Source: Mobula hypostoma (Eukaryota). From it: a stretch of DNA of 64,000 nt. A model generated the notes under the pieces. It saw only the letters and a list, made by a program, of their open reading frames with translations. It ran no database searches and was not told the origin of the DNA. The stretch is taken from contig NC_086097.1 in the NCBI RefSeq assembly GCF_963921235.1, forward strand, positions 67,768,001-67,832,000, given 5' to 3'. Of the stretch, positions 136 to 54,858 are shown in pieces (position 1 is the first letter of the stretch; each line of letters begins with the position of its first letter). A program made the position numbers and the translations under genes.

Positions 136-304
136 AAACAACAGGAATTCTGCAGATGCTGGAAATTCAAGCAACACACATCAAAGTTGCTGGTGAACGC
201 AGCAGGCCAGGCAGCATCTCCAGGAAGTGGTACAGTCGACGTTTCAGGCCGAGACCCTTCGTCAGGACTAACTGAGGGAAGAGTTAGTAAGAGATTTGAA
301 AGCT
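136..304 (-). mobile_element. Penelope-like element 3' terminal repeat fragment
   Basis: Near-identical to 27167-27332. The inverted arm of that insertion starts with the GIY-YIG ORF C-terminus. Confidence 0.85.
234..269 (-). ncRNA. Minimal type I hammerhead ribozyme motif, core intact
   Basis: Minus strand: AGUC-CUGACGA-AGGgucucggCCU-GAAA-CG-UC-GACU. Stem I is AGUC/GACU, both core boxes are present, and the cleavage triplet is GUC. Confidence 0.8.
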
Positions 305-1501: not shown

Positions 1502-1636
1502 TGTCCTGCTGAAGGGTTTTGTCCCGAAACATCGACTGTACTTTTTTCCATAGATGCTGCCTGGCCTGCTGAGTTCCTCCAGCATTTTGTGTGTGTTGCT
1601 CGGATTTCCAGCATCTGTAGACTTTCTCGTTTGTGA
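1502..1636 (+). mobile_element. Short Penelope-like terminal fragment with a degenerate hammerhead (1503-1537)
   Basis: GTC-CTGCTGA-AGGGttttgtCCC-GAAAC-ATC-GACT followed by the shared gatgctgcctggcctgctgagttcctccagca…atttccagcatctg tail. Possible ATGCACTGTA duplication at 1492-1501 and 1641-1650. Confidence 0.8.
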
Positions 1637-7689: not shown

Positions 7690-8908
7690 ACATAGAAACA
7701 TAGAAAATAGGTGCAGGAGTAGGCCATTCGGCCCTTCGAGCCTGCACCGCCATTTATTATGATCATGGCTGATCATCCAACTCAGAACCCAGCCTTCCCT
7801 CCATACCCCCTGACCCCTGTAGCCACAAGGGCCATATCTAACTTCCTTTTAAACATAGCTAATGAACTGGCCTCAACAGTTTGCTGTGGCAGAGAATTCC
7901 ACAGATTCACCACTCTCTGTGTGAAGAAGTTTTTCCTAACCTCGGTCCTAAAAGGCTTCCCCTCTATCCTCAAACTGTGACCCCTCGTTCTAGACCTCCC
8001 CAACATCGGGAACAATCTTCCCGCATCTAGCCTGTCCAATCCCTTTAGGATCTTATACGTTTCAATCAGATCCCCCCTCAATCTTCTAAATTCCAACGAG
8101 TACAAGCCCAGTTCATCCAGTCTTTCTTCATATGAAAGACCTGCCATCCCAGGAATCAATCTGGTGAACCTTCTTTGTACTCCCTCTATGGCAAAGATGT
8201 CTTTCCTCAGATTAGGGGACCAAAACTGCACACAATACTCCAGGTGTGGTCTCACCAAGGCCTTGTACAACTGCAGTAGTACCTCCCTGCTCCTGTACTC
8301 GAATCCTCTCGCTATAAATGCCAGCATACCGTTCGCCTTTTTCACCGCCTGCTGTACCTGCATGCCCACTTTCAATGACTGGTGTATAATGACACCCAGG
8401 TCTCGTTGCACCTCCCCTTTTCCTAATCGGCCACCATTCAGATAATAATCTGTTTTCCTATTTTTGCCACCAAAGTGGATAACTTCACATTTATCCACAT
8501 TAAATTGCATCTGCCATGAGTTTGCCCACTCACCCAACCTATCCAAGTCACCCTGCATCCTCTTAGCATCCTCCTCACTGCTAACACTGCCACCCAGCTT
8601 CGTGTCATCCGCAAACTTGGAGATGCTGCATTTAATTCCCTCATCCAAGTCATTAATATATATTGTAAACAACTGGGGTCCCAGCACTGAGCCTTGCGGT
8701 ACCCCACTAGTCACCGCCTGCCATTCTGAAAAGGTCCCGTTTATTCCCACTCTTTGCTTCCTGTCTGCTAACCAATTCTCCACCCACACCAATACCTTAC
8801 CCCCAATACCGTGTGCTTTAAGTTTGCACACTAATCTCCTATGTGGGACCTTGTCAAAAGCCTTTTGAAAATCCAAATATACCACATCCACTGGTTCTCC
8901 CCTATCCA
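7690..8908 (-). mobile_element. Young 5'-truncated CR1 LINE with an open RT C-terminal ORF
   Basis: 375-aa ORF 7782-8909 with YLDFQKAFDKVPH, GVPQGSVLGP and KFADDTKL. 3' stem-loop (ggtgcagg…cctgcacc) and (CATAGAAA)n tail. Confidence 0.95.
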
Positions 8909-9289
8909 AATGCTACATATTTATTTTGAGGTTTATCTACATCCTCTGGCTTCACACATAGAATACCCCTTATGATTCTTAAAGGGACACACTCTTTCCT
9001 TGGCTACACCATTGCTTCTGATTTATGTATATTATGTCTTGGGATTCTCATGTCTTGGGACCCTTTCTGACTTCCTAATTTCTTTATTTAGTCTTGCCAA
9101 CACTCTTCATATAAGAATACAGAATAGTGCAACACTGGAACAGTCCCTTCGCCCATGATGTTGTGCCAAACTAATTAAACTAAAAATTAAATGCCGAACT
9201 TCATTAATCTCTTCTGCATACCCAATGTCCACATCCCTCTATTTCTCTGCATATTCATGTGCCTATCTAAAAGCCCCTTAAGTGCCAAG

Positions 9290-16989: not shown

Positions 16990-18370
16990 TTTTAAGAATA
17001 GAGGGAGTCAGCAGAAAGAAAATTATAGAATAGTTAGTCTGAACTCAGTGGTTGGGAAGATATTGGAGTCAACTGTTATGGAATACTTGGTGACACAGGA
17101 CAAGATATGACAAAGTCAGCATGGTTGCCTTAAGGGGAAATCTTGCCTGTCAAACCTGTTGGATTTTTTTGTGGAGATTATAAGTAGGATAGATAAAGGG
17201 GATGCTGTGAATGTTGCATATTTGGATTTTCAGAGGGTCTTTGACATGGTGCCACACATAAGGCTGCTTACCAAGTTAAGAACCCATGGTATTACAGAAA
17301 GTTACTGGCATGGTTAGAGTATTGACTGATTGGTAGAAGCCAGCGAGTGGGAATAAAAGGATTATTGTCCCGTTGGCTTTCAGTGACTAATAGTGTTCCA
17401 CAGGGGTCGGTGATGGGACCACTTCTTTTTATGCTGTATATAAATGATTTAGGTGATGGAATAGATGGCTTTGTTGCCATGTTTACAGATGATATGAAGA
17501 TCAGTGGAGGGGCAGGTAGTGTTGAAGAAACAGGAAGGCTGCAGAAGGATTTAGACAGATTAGGAGAATGGGCAAGAAAGTGGAAAATGAAATACAGTGT
17601 TGGAAAATTGCATAGTCATGCACTTTGATAGTAGTAACAAATGTCCAGACTATTTTCTAAATGGGGAGAAAATCCAAAAATCTGAGATGCAAAGAGACTT
17701 GTAAATCCTGGTGCAGAACACCCTAAAAGTTAGCTTGCAGATTGAGTCGGTGGTGAGGAAGGCAAATACAGTGTTAGCATTCATTTCAAGAGGTCTAGAA
17801 TATAAGAGCAGGGATGTGATGCTGAGGTTTTATAAGGCACTGGTGAGGCTTCACCTTGAGTATTGTGAACAGTTTTGGGCTCCTCATCTTATGAAAGATG
17901 TGCTGGCATTGGAGAGGGTTCAGAGGAGGTTCACAAGGACGATTCCAGGAATGAAAGGATTATCACACAAGGAACATTTGATAGCTCTGGGCCTGCACTT
18001 GCTGGAACTTAAAAGGCTAAGGAGGGATCACATTGAAATCTTTCAAATGTTAAGAGGCCTAGACAGAGTAGATGTGGAAAGGATTTTTCCATGGTGAGCG
18101 AGTCTAGGACAAGAGGGCACAGTCTCAGGAAAGAGGGGTATCTGTTTAAAACAGATATGTGGAAAAATTCCTTTAGCCAGAGGGTGGTGAATTTGTGGAA
18201 TTTATTCCCACAGGCAGCTGTGGAGGCCAGGTCATTGGGTGTATTTAAGGCGGAGATTGATAGGTTCTTGCTTAGCCACAGCATCAAAGATTATGGGGAG
18301 AAGGCTGGGGATCAGCCATGATTGAATGGTGGAGCAGAGTCGATGGGCCAAATGGCCTCATTCTGCTCCA
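16990..18370 (+). mobile_element. CR1 LINE ORF2 (RT) fragment, frameshifted
   Basis: ORFs 17347-17628 (VPQGSVMGPLLF…MFTDDMK), 17711-18097 and 18091-18321 are collinear with CR1 RT. Confidence 0.9.
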
Positions 18371-26745: not shown

Positions 26746-27263
26746 TGGTGCTCCATATTGTTCGAGAAGGTCACATAAGAAGATAAAATTTCACATGTGA
26801 AGTCCACAGGATACCATTGATGAGCTTTTCAGTTAACTATTGCACTGTAATTGACATTGTTGGTTTCAATACAGTAATCCCTGCCATTGTCACTAATAAC
26901 ACAACTATTATAATTTTTGCAGGTAGGTCTTAAAGGATCATGCAATAGCATGGGCACACTGAATCTATATAGTGATGCCAATGAATAAATGGAAGTTATG
27001 ATGATGTGGAAGTATGGGGATGAGTTACATTTCATTGTTCAATTAATAAGAACTGAAGTTATTTGGAAGTTGAAATTTTCACTGCTTTTGAATTTTGCAT
27101 GTTGCATTGCCATGGATATAATTTGGGAAAGTTTTATTCCATCAAAACAATGCTAGAGAGAATGAGAACAACAGGGATTCTGCAGATGCTGGAAATTCAA
27201 GCAACACACATAAAAGTTGCTGGTGAATGCAGCAGGCCAGGCAGCATCTCTAGGAAGAGGTAC

Positions 27264-27299
27264 AGTCGATGTTTCAGGCCGAGACCTTTCGTCAGGACT
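27264..27299 (-). ncRNA. Hammerhead ribozyme motif (left arm of the fold-back)
   Basis: AGUC-CUGACGA-AAGGucucggCCU-GAAA-CA-UC-GACU. Core boxes are intact; the stem III CG has mutated to CA. Confidence 0.7.
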
Positions 27300-27934
27300 A
27301 ACTGAAGGAAGAGGTAGTAAGAGATTTGAAAGTGGGAGGGGGAGGGGGAGATGCAAAATGATAGGAGGAGACAGGAGGGGGAGGGATGGAGCCAAGATCT
27401 GGACAGGTGATTGGCAAAAGGGATATGAGAGGATCATGGGACAGGAGGTCCGGGAAGAAAGACAAGGGGGGGGGGGGAACCCAGAAGATGGGCAAGGGTA
27501 TATTCAGAGGGCCAGAGGGAGAAAAAGGAGAGTGAGAGAAAGAATGTGTGTATAAAAATAAGTAACAGATTGGGTACGAGGGGGAAGTGGGGCATTAGCG
27601 GAAGTTAGGCATGAACATCAACTTCTCTAACTTCCGCTAATGCCCCACCTCCCCCTCGTACCCCATCTGTTACTTATTTTTATACACATATTCTTTCTCT
27701 CACTCTCCTTTTTCTCCCTCTGTCCCTCTGAATATACCCCTTGCCCATCATCTGGGTTCCCCCCCACCTTGTCTTTCTTCCCGGACCTCCTGTCCCATGA
27801 TCCACTCGTATCCCTTTTGCCAATCACCTGTCCAGATCTTGGCTCCATCCCTCCCCCTCCTGTCTTCTCCTATCATTTTGGATCTCCCCCTCCCCCTCCA
27901 ACTTTCAAATCTCTTATTCACTCTTCCTTCAGTT

Positions 27935-27970
27935 AGTCCTGACGAAGGGTCTCGGCCTGAAATGTCGACT
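27935..27970 (+). ncRNA. Hammerhead ribozyme motif (right arm of the fold-back)
   Basis: AGUC-CUGACGA-AGGGucucggCCU-GAAA-UG-UC-GACU. The CG has mutated to UG. Confidence 0.7.
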
Positions 27971-29070
27971 GTACCTCTTCCTAGAGATGCTGCCTGGCCT
28001 GCTGCGTTCACCAGCAACTTTGATGTGTGTTGCTAGAGAGAATGAGAATCAGTATGACGAATGGTGAGACAGACATCCAATTGCCACTAAAGCAATCAGA
28101 AATAAACTCAAAATTACTTTAACTCCAGGATAACTTGATTTGCAAAGCACTGCACTTTTTTTGCAGTTGTGTGAATGTATTTCTAACCTGCTGTCTTAAC
28201 AATCTCAAATCTTCTGATCTAGAAGTGAGCTTATTACTTCAGATCCAAACTGCTATGTGATGACAGGTAATAGGATAAGCTGTTAAAGTAAGGTCCTCAG
28301 AGAAACATTTTTCTCTTTCCTTCAAATGTAACCATGTAATATGTCAACAACATCTTCAATTTACATATCTTTCAAATAGAGAGAACTGAGCTAAGGTATT
28401 AAACAGAAGCATTATCAAACATTTGGCACCAAAATGCAGACAAAGGAATCAAGACTATTAACTAAAAGCTTGGTCAAAAACTTTAGGAAGCATCCTCCAT
28501 CTCCACTGCATCTGCTCTCAGGCTGAGCTTTTCATTCCAGAACAACTATGATGTCCTCCTCTTTCAAAGAAAGGGGCTTCCTTTCCTCCACCATCACCTG
28601 TATCTTCTATTTCACGCATGACTGCCCTCACCCCATTCTCCCACTGCCACACCAGGGTGAGGGTTTCCCTTGTCCTCACTACTACCTCACCAGCCTCTGC
28701 ATTCGGCACATAACTCTCTGTAACTTCCACCTTCTCCAACAGGATCCCGCCACCAAGCACATCTTTCCATCCCGCCCCCACCCCCCCCCCCACTTTCTAC
28801 ATTCTGCAGGAATCGCTCTCTCAATGCAACTTCACTTGTCCACTTGTCCCTCCCAACTGATCGCTCTCCTGGCACTTACCCGTGTAGGTAGAACAGGTGC
28901 CACACCAGCCCTTACACCTTCTCCTTCACAACCATTCAGGACCCCAAACATTCCTTTCAGGTGAGGCAACACTTCACCTGTGAGTCTGTTGGGGTCATCT
29001 ACTGTATCCAGTGCTTCTGGTACAGCCTCCTGTATATTGGTGAGACCCAATGTAGATTGGAAGACCGCTT

Positions 29071-30891
29071 CAATAGACAATAGACAATAGGTGCAGGAGT
29101 AGGCCATTCGGCCCTTCGAGCCAGCACCGCCATTCACTGTGATCATGGCTGATCATCTACAATCAGTATCCGGTTCCTGCCTTATCCCCATAACCTTTGA
29201 TTCCACTATCTTTAAGAGCTCTATCCATCTCTTTCTTGAAAGCATCCAGAGACTTGGTTTCCACAGCCTTCTGGTGCAGAGCATTCCATATATCCACCAC
29301 TCTCTGGGTGAAAAAGTTTTTCCTCAACTCTGTTCTAAATGGCCTACCCCTTATTCTTAAACTGTGGCCTCTGGTTCTGGACTCACCCATCAGCGGGAAC
29401 ATGCTTCTTGCCTCCAGTGTGTCCAATCCCTTAATAATCTTATATGTTTCAATAAGATCCCCTCTCAGCCTTCTAAATTCCAGAGTATACAAGCCCAGTC
29501 GCTCCAATCTTTCGACATATGACAGTCCCGCCATCCTGGGAATTAACCTTGTGAATCTACGTTGCACTCCCTCAATAGCAAGAATGCCCTTCCTCAAATT
29601 TGGAGACCAAAACTGCACACAGTACTCCAGGTGTGGTCTCACCAGGGCCCTGTACAGCTGCAGAAGGACCTCTTTGCTCTTATACTCAATTCCCCTTGTT
29701 ATGAAGGCCAGCATGCTATTAGCTTTGTTCACTGCCTGCTGTACTTGCATGCTTGCTTTTAGTGACTGATGTACAAGAACACCTAGATCTCGTTGTGCTT
29801 CCCCTTTTCCTAACTTGACTCCATTTAGATAATAATCTGCCTTCCTGTTCTTATCACCAAAATGGATAACCTCACATTTATCCACATTAAACTGCATCTG
29901 CCATGCATCTGCCCACTCACCCAGCCTGTCCAAGTCACCCTGCATTCTCATAGCATCCTCCTCACATTTCACACTGCCACCCAGCTTTGTGTCATCGGCA
30001 AATTTGCTAATGTTACTTTTAATTCCCTCATCTAAATCATTAATATATATTGTAAGCAGCTGCGGTCCCAGCACTGAACCCTGCGGTACCCCACTGGTCA
30101 CCGCCAGCCATTCCGAAAGGGGCCCATTAATCGCTACTCCTTGTTTTCTGTCAGCCAGCCAATTTTCAATCCATGTCAGTACTCTGCCCCCAATACCATG
30201 TGCCCTAATTTTGCCCATTAATCTCCTATGTGGGACTTCATCAAAGGCTTTCTGAAAGTCCAGGTACACTACATCCACTGGCTCTCCCTTGTCCATTTTC
30301 ATAGTTACATACTAAAAAAATTCCAGAAGATTAGTCAAGCACGATTTCCCCTTCGTAAATCCATGCTGACTTGGACCGATCCTGTTACTGCTATCCAGAT
30401 GTGTTGTAATTTCATCTTTTATAATTGACTCCAGCATCTTTCCCACCATCGACGTCAGGCTAATCAGTCTATAATTCCCTATTTTCTCTCTTCCTCCCTT
30501 CTTGAAGACAGGGACAACATTAGCCACCCTCCTGTCCACAGGAACTGATCCTGAATCTATAGAACATTGGTAAATGATTACCAATGCATCCACGATTTCT
30601 AAAGCCACCTCCTTAAGTACCCTGGGATGCAGACCATCAGGTCCCGGGGACTTATCAGCCTTCAGACCCAACAGTCTATCCAACACCATTTCCTGCCTAA
30701 TATAAATTTCCTTCAGTTCATCCATTACCCTAGGTTCTTTGGCCACTATTATATCCGGGAGATTGTTTGTGTCTTCCCTAGTGAAGACAGATCCAAAGTA
30801 CCTGTTCAACCCGTCTGCCATTTCCTTGTTCCCCATAATAAATTCACCCGCTTCTGTCTTTAAGGACCCAATTTTGGTCTTAACTATTTTT
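29071..30891 (-). mobile_element. Young 5'-truncated CR1 LINE nested in the Penelope GIY-YIG domain
   Basis: ORFs 30312-30896 and 29163-30302 are in one frame, separated by a single TAG (LLEFF*). (CAATAGA)n tail. TTCA duplicated at 29069-29072 and 30892-30895. Confidence 0.95.
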
Positions 30892-31395
30892 TTCATCGAG
30901 CAACTTCACTCTATCCATCACAAAAAGCAGGATTTCCAACTGGCCACCCATCCCAATTCTACTTCCTATTCCAACATGTCAGTCTGTGGTCTCCTCCACT
31001 GCCAGGATGAAGCCACACTCAGAATGGAGGAGCAATACCTTAAATTCTGTCTGGGTAGCCTCCAACCTGATGGCACGAACATCGATTTCTCGAACTTCTG
31101 GTAATTGCCCCCACCCCCCACTTCACCATTCCCTATTTTTGTTTCTCTCTCACACCTTCTTTTCTTACCTGCTTGTCACCTCCCTCTGGTGCTCCTCCCC
31201 CTTCCCTTTCTTCCATGGTCTTCTATTCTCTCCTATCAGATTCCCCCTTCTCCAGTCCTTTATCTCTTTCACCAATTAACTTCCCAGCTCTTTAATTCAC
31301 CCCTCCCCCTCCCCTGGTTTCACCCTTCAGTTTCCACCTGGTATCTCTTCCACCCCTGTCCCCACCTTCTTGCTCTGGCTTCTCCCCTTCCTTTC

Positions 31396-31433
31396 CAGTC
31401 CTGATGAAGGGTCTCAGCCAGAAATGTCGACTG
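31396..31433 (+). ncRNA. Hammerhead ribozyme motif in the Penelope 3' repeat
   Basis: CAGUC-CUGAUGA-AGGGucucagCCA-GAAA-UG-UC-GACUG. Lies ~290 nt after the GIY-YIG ORF stop on the same strand. Confidence 0.75.
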
Positions 31434-31814
31434 TTTACTTTTTTCCATAGAAGCTGCCTGGCCTGCTGAGTTCCCCCAGCATTTTGTGTGTGTTGCTTGA
31501 TGAGGAAAGGAGAGGATAGGTTTCATAGAAAATGTGAGGCTGGCAGGAGAGGATAGGAAGAATCAATGATAGAAATGAAGAAAAATGTTGGATGGGTGTT
31601 TCAAAGCAAAGGGGGTGATATTGGCAGCATTGTAGAAATAGGGGGAAAATAAGCCCCCTATAACATGGATACTTAGCAGAAAAGTCACCTTTGAGTCAAA
31701 TTTGGCATTAAGATTATGAGAATGGTCTTGTTCAGCTTTCAAGGTTTTCCCAGAAAGTTAATAATGCCCACGTCTACTGCAGGGGCCAAGGCTAAGAGCT
31801 GAAATATCTGCAAA

Positions 31815-31997
31815 AGATGTTGGAAATATTCACTAGGTCAGGCAGCAGGAAGGGAGTTAATGTTTCAGTTGAATGACCTTTCAGTAGAACTGAAATGTTG
31901 ACTTTGTCTTTCTCTCTCTGCAGATGCTGCCTGAAGTGTTGAATATTTCCATTAACATTCTGCTTTAACTTCAGATAATCATCTGTGGTTTTTTTGC
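31815..31997. mobile_element. Older Penelope-like mini fold-back with a decayed hammerhead (31855-31891, minus strand)
   Basis: ggaaatattcac…tcaggcagca is inverted against tgctgcctga…gaatatttcc. Minus strand reads AGTT-CTACTGA-AAGG…-GAAAC-ATT-AACT. Confidence 0.6.
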
Positions 31998-32583: not shown

Positions 32584-32798
32584 TCACAAACAAGATAAAA
32601 ATCTGCAGATGCTGGAAATCCAAGCAACACACACAAAAAGCTGGAGGAACTCAGCAGGCCAGGCAGCATCGATAGATAAAAGTTCTGTTGATGTTTCGGT
32701 CCTGCCAAAGGGTCTCAGCCCGAAACGTCGACTGTACTCTCGTCCATAGCTCTGCCTGGCCTGTTGATTCCCTCTAGCATTTTGTGCGTGTTGCTTCA
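32584..32798. mobile_element. Miniature Penelope-like fold-back with a 13-bp target-site duplication
   Basis: An inverted 3' end (32584-32698) is joined to a sense copy starting at hammerhead stem I (32699). ATGAAAAATAGAA occurs at 32571-32583 and 32799-32811. Confidence 0.88.
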
Positions 32799-33234
32799 AT
32801 GAAAAATAGAAGCAGGCAAAGAGAGATTATAAAGTAAGTCCAGAGATAATAGTGTGGGAAGAGGAAGAAAAGCCACGGCAGAAATTGAGTAGGTTCCTAT
32901 TCAACCAATAAGAATGAAATCAATCATAAGCATTTCTTTTCAGCTGGGTAAGAGTCAAAGCATCAGAGAAAGCAGAGTTTGGCAAGGGCTGCTAATGGGT
33001 TACCAAAGATAAGTGGTATAAATCTCAAATTATTTACAATTCCAGTAAAGGTAGTTTCCAACCTGCAGTGAGATTAAGTAATTACGATCACAACATTGTT
33101 CTAAATATCAGGTTAGTACAAAGTGTATAATTAGAATTATAAATTATGCTTATGCTACGAAAGATTAAATAATGTAGTTTGTGGAAATATGAAATAAGAT
33201 CAGAAAACAATGACAACACTGAGGAAGATTGTAA

Positions 33235-39484: not shown

Positions 39485-41050
39485 CACAAACACAAAAGGT
39501 TCTGCAAATGCCGCAGATCCAAAGCAACACACATAAAATGCTGGAGGAACTCAGCAGGTCAGGCTGCATCTACAGAGAGGAATAAAGAGTCAAAGTTTCA
39601 GGCCAGGTCCTTCCTTAGGACTGGAGTGGAAAGGGGAAGAAGGTAGAAGGAGATGTGGGGGTGGAGGGGAAGGAGGACAATTTGGCAGGTGATAGGTGAA
39701 ATCATATGGGGGAAGGGGGGATGAAGTGAGAAGCTGGAAGGTGATGGATGGAAAGTGTAAAGGGCTGAAGAAGAAGGAATCTGATAGGAGAGCAAAGTGG
39801 ATCATGGGAGAAAGGGAAGGGGGGGCACAAGAGGGAGGTGATAGGAAAATGAAGAGAATTGAAGGGGTAAGAGGGGAGCCAGAATGGGAAGTGGTAAAAA
39901 GAAGGGGAGGAGTGGTAGAAAGTACCATAAATTAGAGTAATCTATGTTCATTCCATCAGGCTGGAGGTTACCCAGACAGAATATGAGGTGTTCCTCCACC
40001 AGCCTAGAGTGGCTTTATCGTGACAATGAAGGAGGTCATAGATTGACGTGTTAAAATAGGAATGGGAATTCAAAGTGAATTTGGTGGCCACCAGGAAATC
40101 CCGTCCTTTGTGGTGGGCAGAGCAAAGGTGCTCGATGAAGTGGTCTTCCAATCTGCACCAGGTCTCACCAATGTAGTGCACCGGGAGCATTGGAGACACA
40201 AAATAACTCTGACAGCTTTGCAGGTGAAGTGTCTCCTCACTTGGTAGGACCATTTGGGGTCCTGAGCAGTGGTGAGGGAGGATGTGTACGGGCAGTTGTA
40301 TCATTTGTGCTGCTTGCAGGGATAAGCGTCAGGAGGGCGATCGGGGGAATGGAGTCATGTAGAAATAGATCCCTGTAGAAAGAGGAGACGGTGGGGTGGG
40401 AGGTGCAGGGAAAGATGCCTTTAGTGTAGGATCCTGTTAAAGATGGCAGATATTACGAGAATGATGTGCTGGATATGGAGGTCTGTGGGAAGAACGAGGG
40501 GAACTTTGTCCCTGTTATGACAGTGGAAAGATGTGGGTGAAGGCAGCATTGATGGTAGAGGAAGGAAAACCCTTTTCTTTGAGGAAGGAAGATATCTCAG
40601 ATGTTCTGGAATGACAAGCTTCACCCTGAGAACAGATGTGGTAGAGGTGAGGAACTGAGAAAAGGGAATAGCATTTTTACAAGTGACAGAGTGGGAAAAG
40701 ACACAAGTCAATATGGATGTGAGGGCCAGTAGGTTTATAAAATATATCAGGAGATAGTTTCCAGAGATGGAAACAGAGGGATTCAGAAAGGGGAGAGAGA
40801 ATTCAGAGATGGACAGAGTAAATTTGAGGGCAGGGTGAAAGTTGGAGGCAAAGTTGATGAAATTGATGAGCTCAGCATGGATCCAAGAAGCAGCACAAAT
40901 CAATATAGTCTTTGATATAGCGTAGAAAGAGTTGAGGATCATTCCCAGTGTAGGCTGGAACATGCACTTGTCCCACGTAGCTGATGAAAAGGCAAGCAAA
41001 GCTGGGGTCCATACAGATGCCCATGGCTACACCGTGGGTTTGGAGAAAGT
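39485..41050 (-). mobile_element. Degenerate Penelope-like retroelement (RT C-half, GIY-YIG, 3' repeat with a decayed hammerhead at 39588-39623)
   Basis: GVAMG…FLRYIKD RT motifs (~40900-41035), FINFASNFHPALKFT, HYIGETWCRLEDHFIEH, and MEEHLIFCLGNLQPDGMNIDYSN. Confidence 0.88.
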
Positions 41051-41934
41051 GGGAGGCTTGCAGTTGTTACGCAGGTCAGCGGTAAATATGGATGGCTCAT
41101 TACAGCAATAGTTCTGCCTCAAGGATTCACACTTATATAAAAACAGAAAAAAAATCACTCAGCTGTTCTGCAGAGAGAAAAAAAATAAATGCAGTTATTG
41201 TTTCTGGCCTTCCACAGGTGATCTGTGTACAGATAATGCTGTGGCTAATGTGAGATGAGAAGTGGGTTGCTGGGGTATCAGAAACAATACTGAGTGTAGT
41301 GGGCAGTGAGCTGGAAGGATCAGAGCACAAAATTGGGGAAGGTGTGACACAAAGACAAGGATAGTGAGACTGGCCGTTAGTGTTTATACTGGGTGGGGTG
41401 ATCAGTAATTGGGAGCGATCAGTGTAGATTGGCAGTAGGGGTGAGGGGTGATGGGATAAGAGCCACACATGATGTTGTGCAGAGTCAAGGAAGGAGAAAT
41501 CAGCATTTGGTGGTACAATTGGTATGCTGGAAAGTGAAGGATCTTTATTTGGTACTTGATCAAATCAAGGAGAAAAACTAGCCATTGATTAAGTACTAGT
41601 GGAACAGTACATCAGAGGCCTTGACAAGGGGGATAAAATTGCAGGGTTAAGCATGGCACTGATTGGATGAACGGGTAGTAGTTCTGGGCCTTAGATTTGA
41701 GGTTTGTGGTTCGGTGATATGGGCAAGACTGCAGCAATATTTAAATTAGGTAATTTACTTCACAGCTGGCATCCCAGTCTGCTCAAAACAAGAAAGAATT
41801 TGTTGTCCCAAGAGGTGGGACAAAGTGCCCAAAAGGTAGTGACCCTGGTGTACCACGGGCCAAGCTCCCTAGCAATATGCTTGAAGGATTGTTGAAGTAG
41901 GATTGATCTTAACCCCCATACCCACTCTCAAAAT

Positions 41935-50465: not shown

Positions 50466-51445
50466 CATAGAAACATAGAAACATAGAAAATAGGTGCAGG
50501 AGTAGGCCATTCGGCCCTTCGAGCCTGCACCGCCATTTATTATGATCATGGCTGATCATCCAACTCAGAACCCAGCCTTCCCTCCATACCCCCTGACCCC
50601 TGTAGCCACAAGGGCCATATCTAACTCCCTCTTAAACATAGCCAATGAACTGGCCTCAACAGTTTGCTGTGGCAGAGAATTCCACAGATTCACCACTCTC
50701 TGTGTGAAGAAGTTTTTCCTAATCTCGGTCCTAAAAGGCTTCCCCTCTATCCTCAAACTGTGACCCCTCGTTCTGGACCTCCCCAACATCGGAAACAATC
50801 TTCCCGCATCTAGCCTGCCCAATCCCTTTAGGATCTTATACGTTTCAATCAGATCCCCCCTCAATCTTCTAAATTCCAACAAGTACAAGCCCAGTTCATC
50901 CAGTCTTTCTTCATATGAAAGACCTGCCATCCCAGGAATCAATCTGGTGAACCTTCTTTGTACTCCCTCTATGGCAAAGATGTCTTTCCTCAGATTAGGG
51001 GACCAAAACTGCACACAATACTCCAGGTGTGGTCTCACCAAGGCCTTGTACAACTGCAGTAGTACCTCCCTGCTCCTGTACTCGAATCCTCTCGCTATAA
51101 ATGCCAGCATACCGTTCGCCTTTTTCACCGCCTGCTGTACCTGCATGCCCACTTTCAATGACTGGTGTATAATGACACCCAGGTCTCGTTGCACCTCCCC
51201 TTTTCCTAATCGGCCACCATTCAGATAATAATCTGTTTTCCCATTTTTGCCACCAAAGTGTATAACTTCACATTTATCCACATTAAATTGCATCTGCCAT
51301 GAGTTTGCCCACTCACCTAACCTATCCAAGTCACCCTGCATCCTCTTAGCATCCTCCTCACTGCTAACACTGCCACCCAGCTTCGTGTCATCCGCAAACT
51401 TGGAGATGCTGCATTTAATTCCCTCATCCAAGTCATTAATATATA
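50466..51445 (-). mobile_element. Young 5'-truncated CR1 LINE, near-identical to 7690-8662
   Basis: 288-aa ORF 50565-51431 differs from the 7782-8909 ORF at only 5 residues in the shared region. (CATAGAAA)n tail. Confidence 0.95.
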
Positions 51446-52599
51446 CTATGATTTTCCAGGAAGTGAATCAATGTTACCTATACACGCATCAAGATATACG
51501 AGATGAAAAAAAAAAGATAATTTATTTTTTTTTCACATGAATTCTGTGAAAGTGAGTTTCATTCCATATTTCAACTTTTTGGGTAATGATTGATAAATTT
51601 TCTAAGTGCTAACTTCCATTACTCAAATGGTCATAACATAGAGGGTCAATACTACATTATTGCAATGCCAGAAGTAAAGATTAAATATTGGAATACTAAA
51701 AACGGCATGAGTGATTTTATATATAAACTGAAAGCAGATGCTTTCAACTTCCCTGTTGTGATACCTGTTTGCTAGTTGTACACTAGAGTATTAGCCTTCA
51801 TCATACATCACCTTTTGACTAATATTGGGTGGCCTGGTCCCCAGCATTGGCAATGTTACAGTGTAATCTGTGAATTTGATAGAATTCCACCAACACAATT
51901 ACCCTTTGTAATCCCTTTCTGTTCTTCTCCTCCATTCTGTTAAGAAAACACATTTCCTTTGTTGTAATATCCTTGTTTATTTTGAATACTGTTGGAAACT
52001 TGTCATTTGGGACTCAAATGTGTAAACCCGGCAACCAGTCAATGTATTAAACAAGGCATTTGGACATTGTATATATTTTGGTGTATTTGTTTCCTGAGCA
52101 CTGGTTCTAACTTATAAATTCTTGTGTAGCCCTTGAAAACGCTACCCAGTCGATAGTTATCAATCCACAAAACAGACCAGTATAAAGAGATAAGAGTATA
52201 AATGGATTTAGAAATATTAAAGCTGACAAAGCCTTATTGCATTGATTCCATGGATTATAAACTCTGCCTCTTTAGCAATTTTTCTTTTACTTATTCATTT
52301 TAGAAGCACTGGACAATGCTGGCAAGGGTACTATTCATCTCTGTTTGCTCTTTGAAGGTGGCAATGAGCTACCTTCTTGATTTGTTGCTGTCTTTCTGGT
52401 GAAAGGTGGAAAAGTCGAAACTGCAAGAGTGGCAATATGTATGGGCAAGTAAGGATGGTGTGCAGTCTGCGGATGGTGGTGATGCTAGGTTGTTGCTCTT
52501 TCTCTCAGAGGTAGAGGCTGCAAATTTGAGAGATGCTTCTGGAGTAGTCTAGGCAAGTACACTGACTGCTGTGCATTGATAGTAATGTACACCATTGAT

Positions 52600-54858
52600 G
52601 GACTAGATACCGTGCTATTCCACGCCCTCACTTCGGGAAGTCTGATCACCTAGCTGCATTCTATTCCCTGGGTATAGGCAGAGACTGAAGACTGCAGCAC
52701 CAGTAGTGAGGACCAGGAAGGGATGGACAAGGGAGACACAGGAGTGCCTACAGGGCTGCTTTGAACTGGCGGACTGAAGTATTCAGGGATTCATCTTCAA
52801 ATCTGGATGAGTATGCTGCAGTTGTTACCGACTTCATTAAAACCTATGTGGATGGGTGAATGCCTACAAAGACTTACTGTACATTCCCAAACCAAAAGCC
52901 GTGAATGAACCAGGAGGTACATTGTCTGCTGAAGGCTAGATCTGTGGCATTCAAGTCTGGCAACCCAGGCCTGTACCGGAAAACCAGGTATGATTTGGGG
53001 AGGACTATTTCAAAGGTGAAGAGACAACTTTGAATGAGATTGGAGGCAACATCAGATGCAAGGCAACTCCGGCAGGGTTTGAAAGACATTTCTTCCTACA
53101 AAGCGAAAACCAATAGCATGAATGGCAGCAATGTTTCACTACCAGATGAATTCAACACCTTCTATGCTTGCTTTGAAAGGGAGAGCACAACCACAGCTGT
53201 GAAGATCCCTGCTGCACCTGATGACCCTGTGATCTCCGTCTCAGAGGCCGATGTTAGACTTCTTTAATGAGAGTGAACCCTCACAAGGCGGAAGGTCCCG
53301 ATGGAGTACCTGGTAAGGCTCTGAAAACCTGTGCCAACCAACTAGCGGGAGTATTCAAGGACATTTTCAACCTCTCACTGCTATGGGCAGAAGTTCCCAC
53401 TTGCTTCAAAAAGGCAACAATTATACCAGTTAGTTATAAAGAACGCAAGAAGAATAATGTGAGCTGCCTTAATGACTATCGCCCGGTAGCACTCACATCT
53501 ACAGTGATGAAATGCTTTGGGAGGATGGTCATGACTAGACTGAACTCCTGCCACAGCAAGGACCTGGACCCATTGCAATTTGCCTACCACCACAATAGGT
53601 CAACGGCGGATGCAATCTCAATGGCTCTCCACATGGCTTTAGACCACCTGGACAACACAAACACCTATGTCAGGATGCTGTTCATTGACTATAGCTCACC
53701 ATTTAGTACCATCATTCCCACAATCCTGATTGAGAAATTGCAGAACCTGAGCCTCTGTACCTCCCTCTGCAATTGGATCCTCAACTTTCTAACCGGAAGA
53801 TCACAATCTGTGTGGATTGGTGATAACATATCCTCCTCACTGACGATCAATACTGGTGCACCTCAGGGGTGTGTGCTTAGCCCAGTGCTCTGGCTCTCTA
53901 TATACAAATGACTGTATGGCTAGGCATAGCTCAATTACCATCTATAAATTTGGTAATGATACAACCATTGTTGGTAGGATCTCAGTTGGTGATGATAGGG
54001 CGTACAGGAGTGAGATATGCCAACTAGTGGAGTGAAGTCACAGCAACAACCTGGCACTCAACGTCAGTAAGACGAAAGAGCTGATTGTGGACTTCAGGAA
54101 GGGTAAGACGAAGAAACACATACCAATCCTCACAAAGGGGTCAGAAGTGGATAGAGTGAGCAGTTTCAAGTTTTCGGCTGTCAAGATCTCTGAGGATCTA
54201 ACCTGGTCCCAACATATCGATGTAGTTATAAAGAAGGCAAGACAGCGGCAATACTTCATGAGGAGTTTGAAGAGATTTGGCATGTCAACAAATACACTCA
54301 GACTTCTATAGATGTACTATGGAGAGCATTCTGACAGTCTGCATCACTGTCTGGTATGGAGGGGCTACTGCACAGGACTGAAAGAAGCTGCAGAAGGTTG
54401 TAAATTTAGTCAGCTCCATCTTGGGTACCAGCCTACAAAGTACCCAGGACATCTTTAAGGGCGGTGTCTCAGAAAGGCAGCGTCTATTATTAAAGACCTC
54501 CAGCACTCAGGGCATGCCCTTTTCTCACTGTTACCATCAGGTAGGAGGTACAGAAGCCTGAAGGCACACACTCAGCGATTCAGGAACAGCTTCTTCCCCT
54601 CTGCCACCCGATTCCTAAATGGACATTGAACACTTGAATACTACCTCACTTTTTTAAGTGAGGTAGTATCCAAGTGTTTTAAACCTATTCAATATACGTA
54701 TACTGTACTGTGATCAATTTACTTATTTATTTATTATTATCATTATTTTATTTCATTGATCATTTTTTCTATATTATGTATTGCATTGAACCGCTGCTGC
54801 TAAGTTAACAAATTTCACATCAGATGTCGGTGATAATAAACCTGATTCTGATCCTGAT
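52600..54858 (+). mobile_element. Long Rex1/Babar LINE (endonuclease end, RT, 3'UTR), inactivated
   Basis: ORF 53267-53911 ([10 protein letters not shown]…[10 protein letters not shown]…[13 protein letters not shown]…[11 protein letters not shown]). The catalytic motif has decayed to KFGNDTT. Several stops; (CTGATT)n tail. Confidence 0.92.

Follow-up and report, generated by a model that had tools for sequence, protein, structure and literature searches.

The hammerhead motif that recurs across a 64,000-nt stretch of Mobula hypostoma contig NC_086097.1 (the window) is very probably a minimal type I hammerhead residing in the pLTR of a young and abundant Penelope-like element, the short copies being 5'-truncated insertions of that element in which the lone ribozyme is likely inactive. 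Ribozymes of this kind have already been published, and the value of the present case is its scale and the statistics of insertion architecture that it yields. A previous sequence-only reading of the window had the motif and its carrier right, overstated the intactness and the density of the motifs, and was wrong in assigning the short copies to a separate family.

The identification of the motif as a minimal type I hammerhead belonging to a Penelope-like element, proposed in that reading, is borne out by the core, the extra A, the ACGU palindrome, the location in the pLTR, and the presence of two copies per full-length locus. In the young family, CUGANGA, GAAA, and NUH are intact in type I order, the palindromic ACGU carries no loop 3, and an extra A follows A9 in 13 of the 14 aligned rows. 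Stem II can be drawn as four base pairs with a U-G closing pair and a CUCG loop. Over the aligned rows, its pair 10.1-11.1 is GU six times, GC four times, AU three times, and another combination once; it is G-C in the older subfamilies, G-U in the dominant young one, and A-U or G-U in the ancient ones. Across the young, C6, middle, and ancient families, the last represented by hand-picked rows, 83% of the stem cells are paired, as compared with 14-37% when slid. Stem I shows a single two-sided change, at the 2.1-1.1 pair beside the cut (CG 8, UA 6, again with hand-picked ancient rows), one-sided changes are present at four stem I/II pairs, and stem II has zero two-sided changes. Position 2.1 was also read in 30 loci selected on the 3' strand alone, which gave T in nine, C in three, A in two, and G in one, with 15 unreadable. 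A search with the Rfam hammerhead models, which had been suggested as a check, failed to recognize the motif, with no match in the window (E<=1) or on a perfect copy (E<=10). The Rfam hammerhead models expect a real stem III. Sub-threshold Rfam matches of miRNA type on fold-back DNA, none of them a hammerhead, were discarded.

Judging from its sequence, the motif is likely a self-cutting RNA. It is unlikely, in our view, that the motif is catalytically dead in this lineage and has been kept as a folded signal for transcript start, protein binding, or RT stop, being carried along by amplification. Such a relic would fit the replacement of the conserved G-C by G10.1-U11.1 in the dominant subfamily, as well as the amplification of a whole older subfamily with C6 (2,338 exact genome matches, associated with the older tail), a base that in other hammerheads strongly lowers Mg2+ cleavage (PMC7151607) and favours Mn2+ (PMC7151607, PMC3088659). 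For the lone young motif, the predicted fold has both stem I and stem II, while the core is sequestered by pairing with CGUC (p 0.98; -11.7 vs -7.7 kcal/mol), and eight of nine Xenopus dimer elements were without cleavage. Minimum-energy folding of natural mini-tandems gave no double hammerhead, the method being unable to represent a crossed dimer. However, the other core positions, the extra A, and ACGU have been kept from ancient to young copies while the flanks changed, the pair adjoining the cut shows a compensated change from C-G to U-A, and the corresponding motif of the anole element cleaves in the presence of protein (PMC11167929).

The eight motifs that had been placed in the window are all there, in position and in strand. 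The claim that their cores are intact holds for CUGANGA in four of them (those at 234, 27264, 27935, and 31396) and not in the rest, and of the eight only 234-269 additionally keeps GAAAC-GUC and both stems. The copies at 1503 and 32699 carry C at position 6, the latter together with G8A; those at 39588 and 31855 have G5A and a disrupted stem III; and the one at 31396-31433(+) is decayed, with a G10.1/A11.1 mismatch and C15.2U. The bare core CTGANGA-N10-30-GAAA occurs in the window at chance level (5 observed vs 5.12 expected). The copies form one family by about 100 nt of common downstream sequence (blastn E 9e-58 to 4e-11), and a profile search added two partial copies, at 32602-32702(-) and 31889-31945(+). 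As 27264/27935, 32699/32702, and 31855/31889 are arm pairs of head-to-head insertions, the window holds about seven insertions (Table 1).

Table 1. Insertions and associated features in the 64,000-nt window
Position	Strand	Feature	Detail
about 160-302 (motif 234..269)	-	short young copy with long tail	only fully intact motif of the window
1503..1537	+	motif of older C6 (CUGCYGA) subfamily	
27167..28037	both strands	single young head-to-head insertion	target-site duplication on flanks
28527..31500	+	older 5'-truncated Penelope-like element	short tail
29072..30891	-	LINE fragment inserted in endonuclease coding region of the 28527..31500 element	Pfam RVT_1 E 2e-21
31811..31990	both strands	ancient head-to-head remnant	outer ends approximate
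32602..32800	both strands	head-to-head mini-insertion	C6 subfamily
39495..41057	-	old decayed Penelope-like element	long tail

The young insertion at 27167..28037 has its long-tail arm on the minus strand (motif 27264-27299) and its short-tail arm on the plus strand (motif 27935-27970). The mini-insertion at 32602 consists of a partial long-tail arm on the minus strand and of motif 32699-32733(+) with a short tail, with a visible 13-nt target duplication, and the ancient remnant at 31811 comprises motif 31855-31891(-), of an AGUU/AACU family, and a partial opposite arm from 31889(+). The copy at 1503 begins at the stem I edge and has a long tail and a 10-nt target duplication visible in the sequence. 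Just ahead of stem I of the young motif, at 27915-27937, a pyrimidine tract that closes with CAG and TAG is reminiscent of a splice acceptor; Drosophila Penelope is reported to have an intron that ends at helix I (PMC4209133).

The motif had been tied to the element by its position downstream of a GIY-YIG frame at 31.4 and 39.6 kb, and this link holds in tblastn searches with an intact frame as the query. At 31.4 kb, the motif lies about 290 nt past the endonuclease stop of an element whose RT thumb, CX4CXXC linker, and GIY-YIG endonuclease are encoded by 28527-29071 and 30892-31104(+), with the 3' UTR beyond; a LINE, which we take to be CR1-type by name, interrupts it. At 39.6 kb, RT-EN remnants (41057-39931, minus strand) are followed by the 3' UTR and the broken motif 39588-39623, which is about 310 nt past the end of the decayed RT-EN frame, whose stop codon is mutated. 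A Pfam search of four broken element frames in the window gave no match. Young LINE fragments with long open RT frames are also present, at 7782-8912(-), 29072-30891(-), 50565-51467(-), 17705-18097(+), and 53258-53911(+); the first four presumably are of CR1 type and the last presumably belongs to another LINE clade.

A genome search that started from an RT fragment produced 150 scored matches, among which open frames reach 967 aa. Four of the 20 matches fetched show a motif-ORF-motif arrangement with the motifs about 3.5-3.7 kb apart, and the direct repeats in those four loci are 168-922 nt long with 97.7-99.4% identity. The unit is 3,513 nt, the cut site being 138 nt 5' of a conserved ATG that opens a single 1,016-aa frame for an RT with a C-terminal GIY-YIG endonuclease, and a second motif follows about 300 nt past the stop. 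The frame contains DKG, YIDD, a CX4CXXC linker (residue 883), CXXC, and LYIG; its Pfam matches, RVT_1 (E 5e-5) and GIY-YIG (E 1e-3), are both under the curated cut-offs, and a comparison of the protein with solved structures gave no match at E<=0.01. A CX2-5CXXC linker between RT and endonuclease is the criterion for Neptune and is common to Nematis (PMC8557442), and by the linker criteria of that report the element is classified, from its predicted protein, as EN+ Penelope-like of the Neptune/Nematis type. Traits of EN+ Penelope-like elements are all present: a single ORF joining RT to a C-terminal GIY-YIG endonuclease with its CCHH finger, partial tandems (pLTR), inverted 5'-truncated arms, an optional tail of 30-40 bp, and target duplication. 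Among 41 loci chosen by an ORF-start marker, at least 17 have full units with an upstream hammerhead-bearing pLTR, and the whole 1,016-aa frame is open in five. The element terminates at either of two fixed 3' positions, about 67 or 103 nt beyond the cut (about 70 or 35 nt before the ATG), and its target-site duplications measure about 14 nt.

Some loci show further peculiarities. At L062:3245-3315, the tail can be drawn in nested stems (AGAUGCUG with CAGCAUCU; AGCAAC with GUUGCU), and the short 3' end falls near the 3' edge of the inner tail stem, a candidate RT start signal. A tail variant at L209:3965-4043 gives an in-frame ATG 26 codons upstream, for a protein of 1,042 instead of 1,016 aa. 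The full-length L186, L207, and L210 have in common a duplication, about 210 nt long, that lies within the region for the proline-rich N-terminus and probably marks a sub-lineage; L060 has a similar one.

The genomic load of the motif is very large, as had been anticipated, and its density in the window was overestimated. The 34-nt pattern GTCCTGAYGAAGGGTCTCGGCCYGAAACGTCGAC has 45,139 matches in the 3.48-Gb genome, versus 0 for the reversed control, and a CpG-tolerant 31-nt version has 88,379. This corresponds to one motif per 39-77 kb genome-wide, with intact motifs at about one per 77 kb; the figure of one per 8 kb derived from the window is inflated because decayed relics were counted and two-armed insertions were counted twice. 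A tail marker has 109,317 genome matches versus 578 exact matches of the ORF-start marker; therefore, about 0.5% of the copies extend to the ORF start. By comparison, about 4,000 motifs in coelacanth and 9,000 in Xenopus, both heterogeneous, have been reported (PMC4209133), as have 14,255 retrozymes in axolotl (Li et al. 2026, bioRxiv 10.64898/2026.07.22.740005). The copy number here is above all of these counts, although the counting methods differ.

The copies of 140-220 nt had been taken for a non-autonomous family, an idea that is not supported, given their scattered 5' ends, the 3' ends of the autonomous element, and target duplications of their own in many of them. We analyzed 86 young arms from loci chosen by the tail marker (two of 88 were dropped at locus edges). 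With the cut taken as zero, their 5' ends lie between +30 and -1918; 75 of the arms span the cut site, 58 contain the whole motif, and 49 begin no further upstream than -65. A cluster of starts at -40..-24 comprises 19 arms (1.1 per nt vs 0.36-0.40 in the adjacent bins), and 1,474 perfect young motifs in the genome begin exactly at -32, with three non-matching bases just before. The 3' ends lie at +50..+76 in 51 arms and at +95..+105 in the other 35, i.e., at both tail ends of the autonomous element, and many short copies have their own 10-16-nt target-site duplication. Solo copies include 30 with a short and 15 with a long tail.

A separate non-autonomous, ribozyme-bearing family, SINE- or retrozyme-like, with masters of its own and a borrowed Penelope-like protein, is very improbable for these copies. 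It could account for the heavy over-representation of stubs noted above and for their pile-up at the stem I edge, and pLTR-derived retrozymes are known (bioRxiv 10.64898/2026.07.22.740005). Moreover, 13 of the 41 ORF-start loci contain ORF-deleted small tandem units with hammerheads, which retain the first 70-150 nt of the ORF; in 11 of them, a donor side at +211..+290 is fused with the 3' UTR, and at three loci one junction recurs unchanged, 2-4 times. The mini-units at L217:3263-4528, L219:3940-4482, and L192:3354-4385 are 310, 262, and about 435 nt long, respectively, and consist of a 3' UTR piece, the hammerhead, the tail, and the first ORF part. Their structure resembles that expected from rolling-circle copying of small RNAs, and they would be natural two-hammerhead substrates. 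However, no junction is common to two mini-tandem loci, the heterogeneous 5' ends of the short copies grade continuously into ORF-containing copies, and head-to-head junctions vary between insertions. The mini-tandems are a real non-autonomous by-product and look like one-off products, not families; the short copies are best read as truncations of the element itself.

Truncated arms are frequently joined head to head. Over all loci fetched, we found 70 insertions with outward-facing tails; some of these loci were fetched for two close matches, and tail type was never a selection criterion. The tail pairs are long and short in 65, long and extra-short in four, short and extra-short in one, and long and long in none, so that exactly one long tail is present in 69 of the 70 (p 6e-20 vs independence), the exception being L191, which has none. 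A target duplication of at least 10 nt (mode 14) flanks 57 of the 70, each of which is therefore a single event. Arm haplotypes were compared in these 57 pairs, as some of the others are probably neighbours of different age (e.g., L204). In pairs with two short arms, two of 79 comparisons at four non-CpG diagnostic tail sites differ (background 34/1,488; 32% for matched unrelated copies). Where an arm is longer, differences are seen in 15 of 88 tail and 24 of 360 upstream comparisons (background 1.3%; matched 37% and 18%), and the comparison of short-arm with long-arm pairs gives a Fisher p of 0.002, with sites that are not independent. In direct pLTR pairs, one of 52 tail-diagnostic comparisons differs. 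Three head-to-head insertions, L253, L254, and L255, are independent and have an identical junction, in which one arm ends at the stem I edge, an extra A follows, and the other arm starts exactly at the cut.

The one-sided tail has been known qualitatively and attributed to resolution of an intermediate, and head-to-head repeats have been attributed to self-priming (PMC8557442, PMC3846280). The rule of one long and one short tail, together with the frequent subfamily mismatch of long-armed pairs, points to RT being likely primed by both DNA ends, sometimes on two RNAs. In the scheme that we tentatively prefer, the protein would bind the RNA near the ORF start and nick both DNA strands about 14 nt apart, and cDNA would be primed internally at two tail sites, one per DNA end. 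Retention of both cDNAs would then lead to head-to-head joining. Many cDNAs would remain incomplete and frequently break off at the outer boundary of stem I, where either the RNA begins or the hairpin stalls the RT; this would leave stubs of 100-220 nt. Two-ended priming by a dimeric RT-endonuclease, in which the ends use different start sites, often on two RNAs where an arm is long, and in which few templates are hammerhead-cut, is as a whole a possible explanation, to be held with reserve. For this to fit the solo copies, which use one or the other tail site as their end, one of the two cDNAs would have to be lost frequently, and the tail asymmetry could instead come from resolution of the intermediate by the endonuclease, as suggested in PMC8557442. 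A literature search that covered mostly papers available without subscription found no published two-end priming model for Penelope-like elements.

The Anolis Poseidon element PAc (Frangieh et al. 2024, PMC11167929) offers a biochemical counterpart. Its tail is delimited by two internal sites of RT initiation, nicking and extension take place on both strands, and a dimer has been predicted; its hammerhead, also in the pLTR, is protein-assisted and dispensable for insertion. In PAc, however, hammerhead and start codon overlap and the tail is part of the ORF, whereas in the present element both the cut, 138 nt 5' of the ATG, and the tail precede the coding frame. No strand difference in start-site use was seen for PAc, and the accessible text does not cover inverted insertions.

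Whether the hammerhead acts during transposition can be approached through copies that start at the cut. Two of the 86 young arms have their 5' end at the cut, and the genome-wide counts give a small excess: 498 copies have three non-matching bases before the cut, versus 147 at +3 and 239 at -3, control positions that carry similar confounds. Starts at the cut make up about 1% of the copies by a filter-corrected estimate, 2-3 times the adjacent positions, and are partly due to microhomology. By eye, the flanks of 42 of the first 100 cut-start rows are explained by element-internal microhomology or a one-base deletion. Among 19 distinct cut-start loci, 14 are head-to-head, four are not inverted, and one is a copy that is intact save for a single deleted base. 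Six of the 14 can be explained by GAC microhomology to the opposite arm, which eight lack. The excess hints at cut RNA templates in part of the copies, and therefore the hammerhead may matter more than our preferred explanation states.

A more central role would have tandem transcripts cut to 3,513-nt monomers, circularised, and copied by rolling-circle reverse transcription into partial tandems and repeated mini-units, as proposed in PMC4209133. The two motifs lie exactly one unit apart, the 5' pLTRs continue seamlessly for 53 to 2,570 nt above the cut (with more than two units at one locus), and 51 of 52 tail-diagnostic comparisons match within direct pLTR pairs, all of which would be in keeping with such a cycle, as would the 2-3-fold excess at the cut and the eight inspected head-to-head cases without GAC microhomology. 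However, identical structures arise from read-through of a tandem locus, upstream differences within some direct pLTR pairs (8 of 33 sites in L187) are unlike what copies of one circular monomer would show, and 42 of the first 100 cut-start rows are otherwise explained. In addition, anole hammerhead mutants insert in vitro, and in the accessible text of that study no RNA read begins or ends at the cut (PMC11167929). Rare variants between direct pLTRs, shared in six cases and unshared in 86, do not discriminate for or against a circular template. We consider this rolling-circle cycle improbable as the main route. In the two-ended scheme, the hammerhead would likely cut a minority of two-hammerhead transcripts, as a dimer or helped by protein, and most insertions would stem from RNA whose cut site is either intact or has been re-ligated.

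The motif shares many features with the metazoan min-HHRs (Cervera and De la Pena 2014, PMC4209133), including the type I core, the extra base between 9 and 10.1, a stem I of 4-5 bp, the palindromic 15.2-16.2, the lack of loop 3, and the pLTR location. Similarly, it is found mostly as single copies on truncated elements, with some opposite-strand pairs 100-700 bp apart. In contrast to the min-HHRs, which number about 4,000 in coelacanth and 9,000 in Xenopus and are heterogeneous, there are 45,139 near-identical motifs here (by a different method), the dominant subfamily has a short stem II with G-U at 10.1-11.1, and there is a C6 subfamily; the searched supplements of that report have no shark, Callorhinchus, or Leucoraja entry. 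Compared with the Neptune/Nematis elements of Craig et al. 2021 (PMC8557442), the asymmetry is counted here (69/70) and tied to duplications and arm haplotypes. The mini-tandems are like non-LTR retrozymes (bioRxiv 10.64898/2026.07.22.740005), which are present in the one chondrichthyan sampled, in being short, pLTR-derived tandems of type I hammerheads. However, unlike those retrozymes, the window copies are not tandem units, and the mini-tandems elsewhere in the genome look one-off.

Tens of thousands of near-identical young insertions make several questions about Penelope-like elements countable, namely those on inverted structures, the one-sided tail, and cutting in vivo. The rule of one long and one short tail and the haplotype mismatch of long arms are direct predictions for the existing anole in vitro system. 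If it stems from hammerhead-cut templates, the excess of arms starting at the cut would be a genomic record of the ribozyme working in vivo. The load of the motif would also imply many intronic copies in host pre-mRNA, and sequestration of the core or a requirement for dimers would have to silence them.
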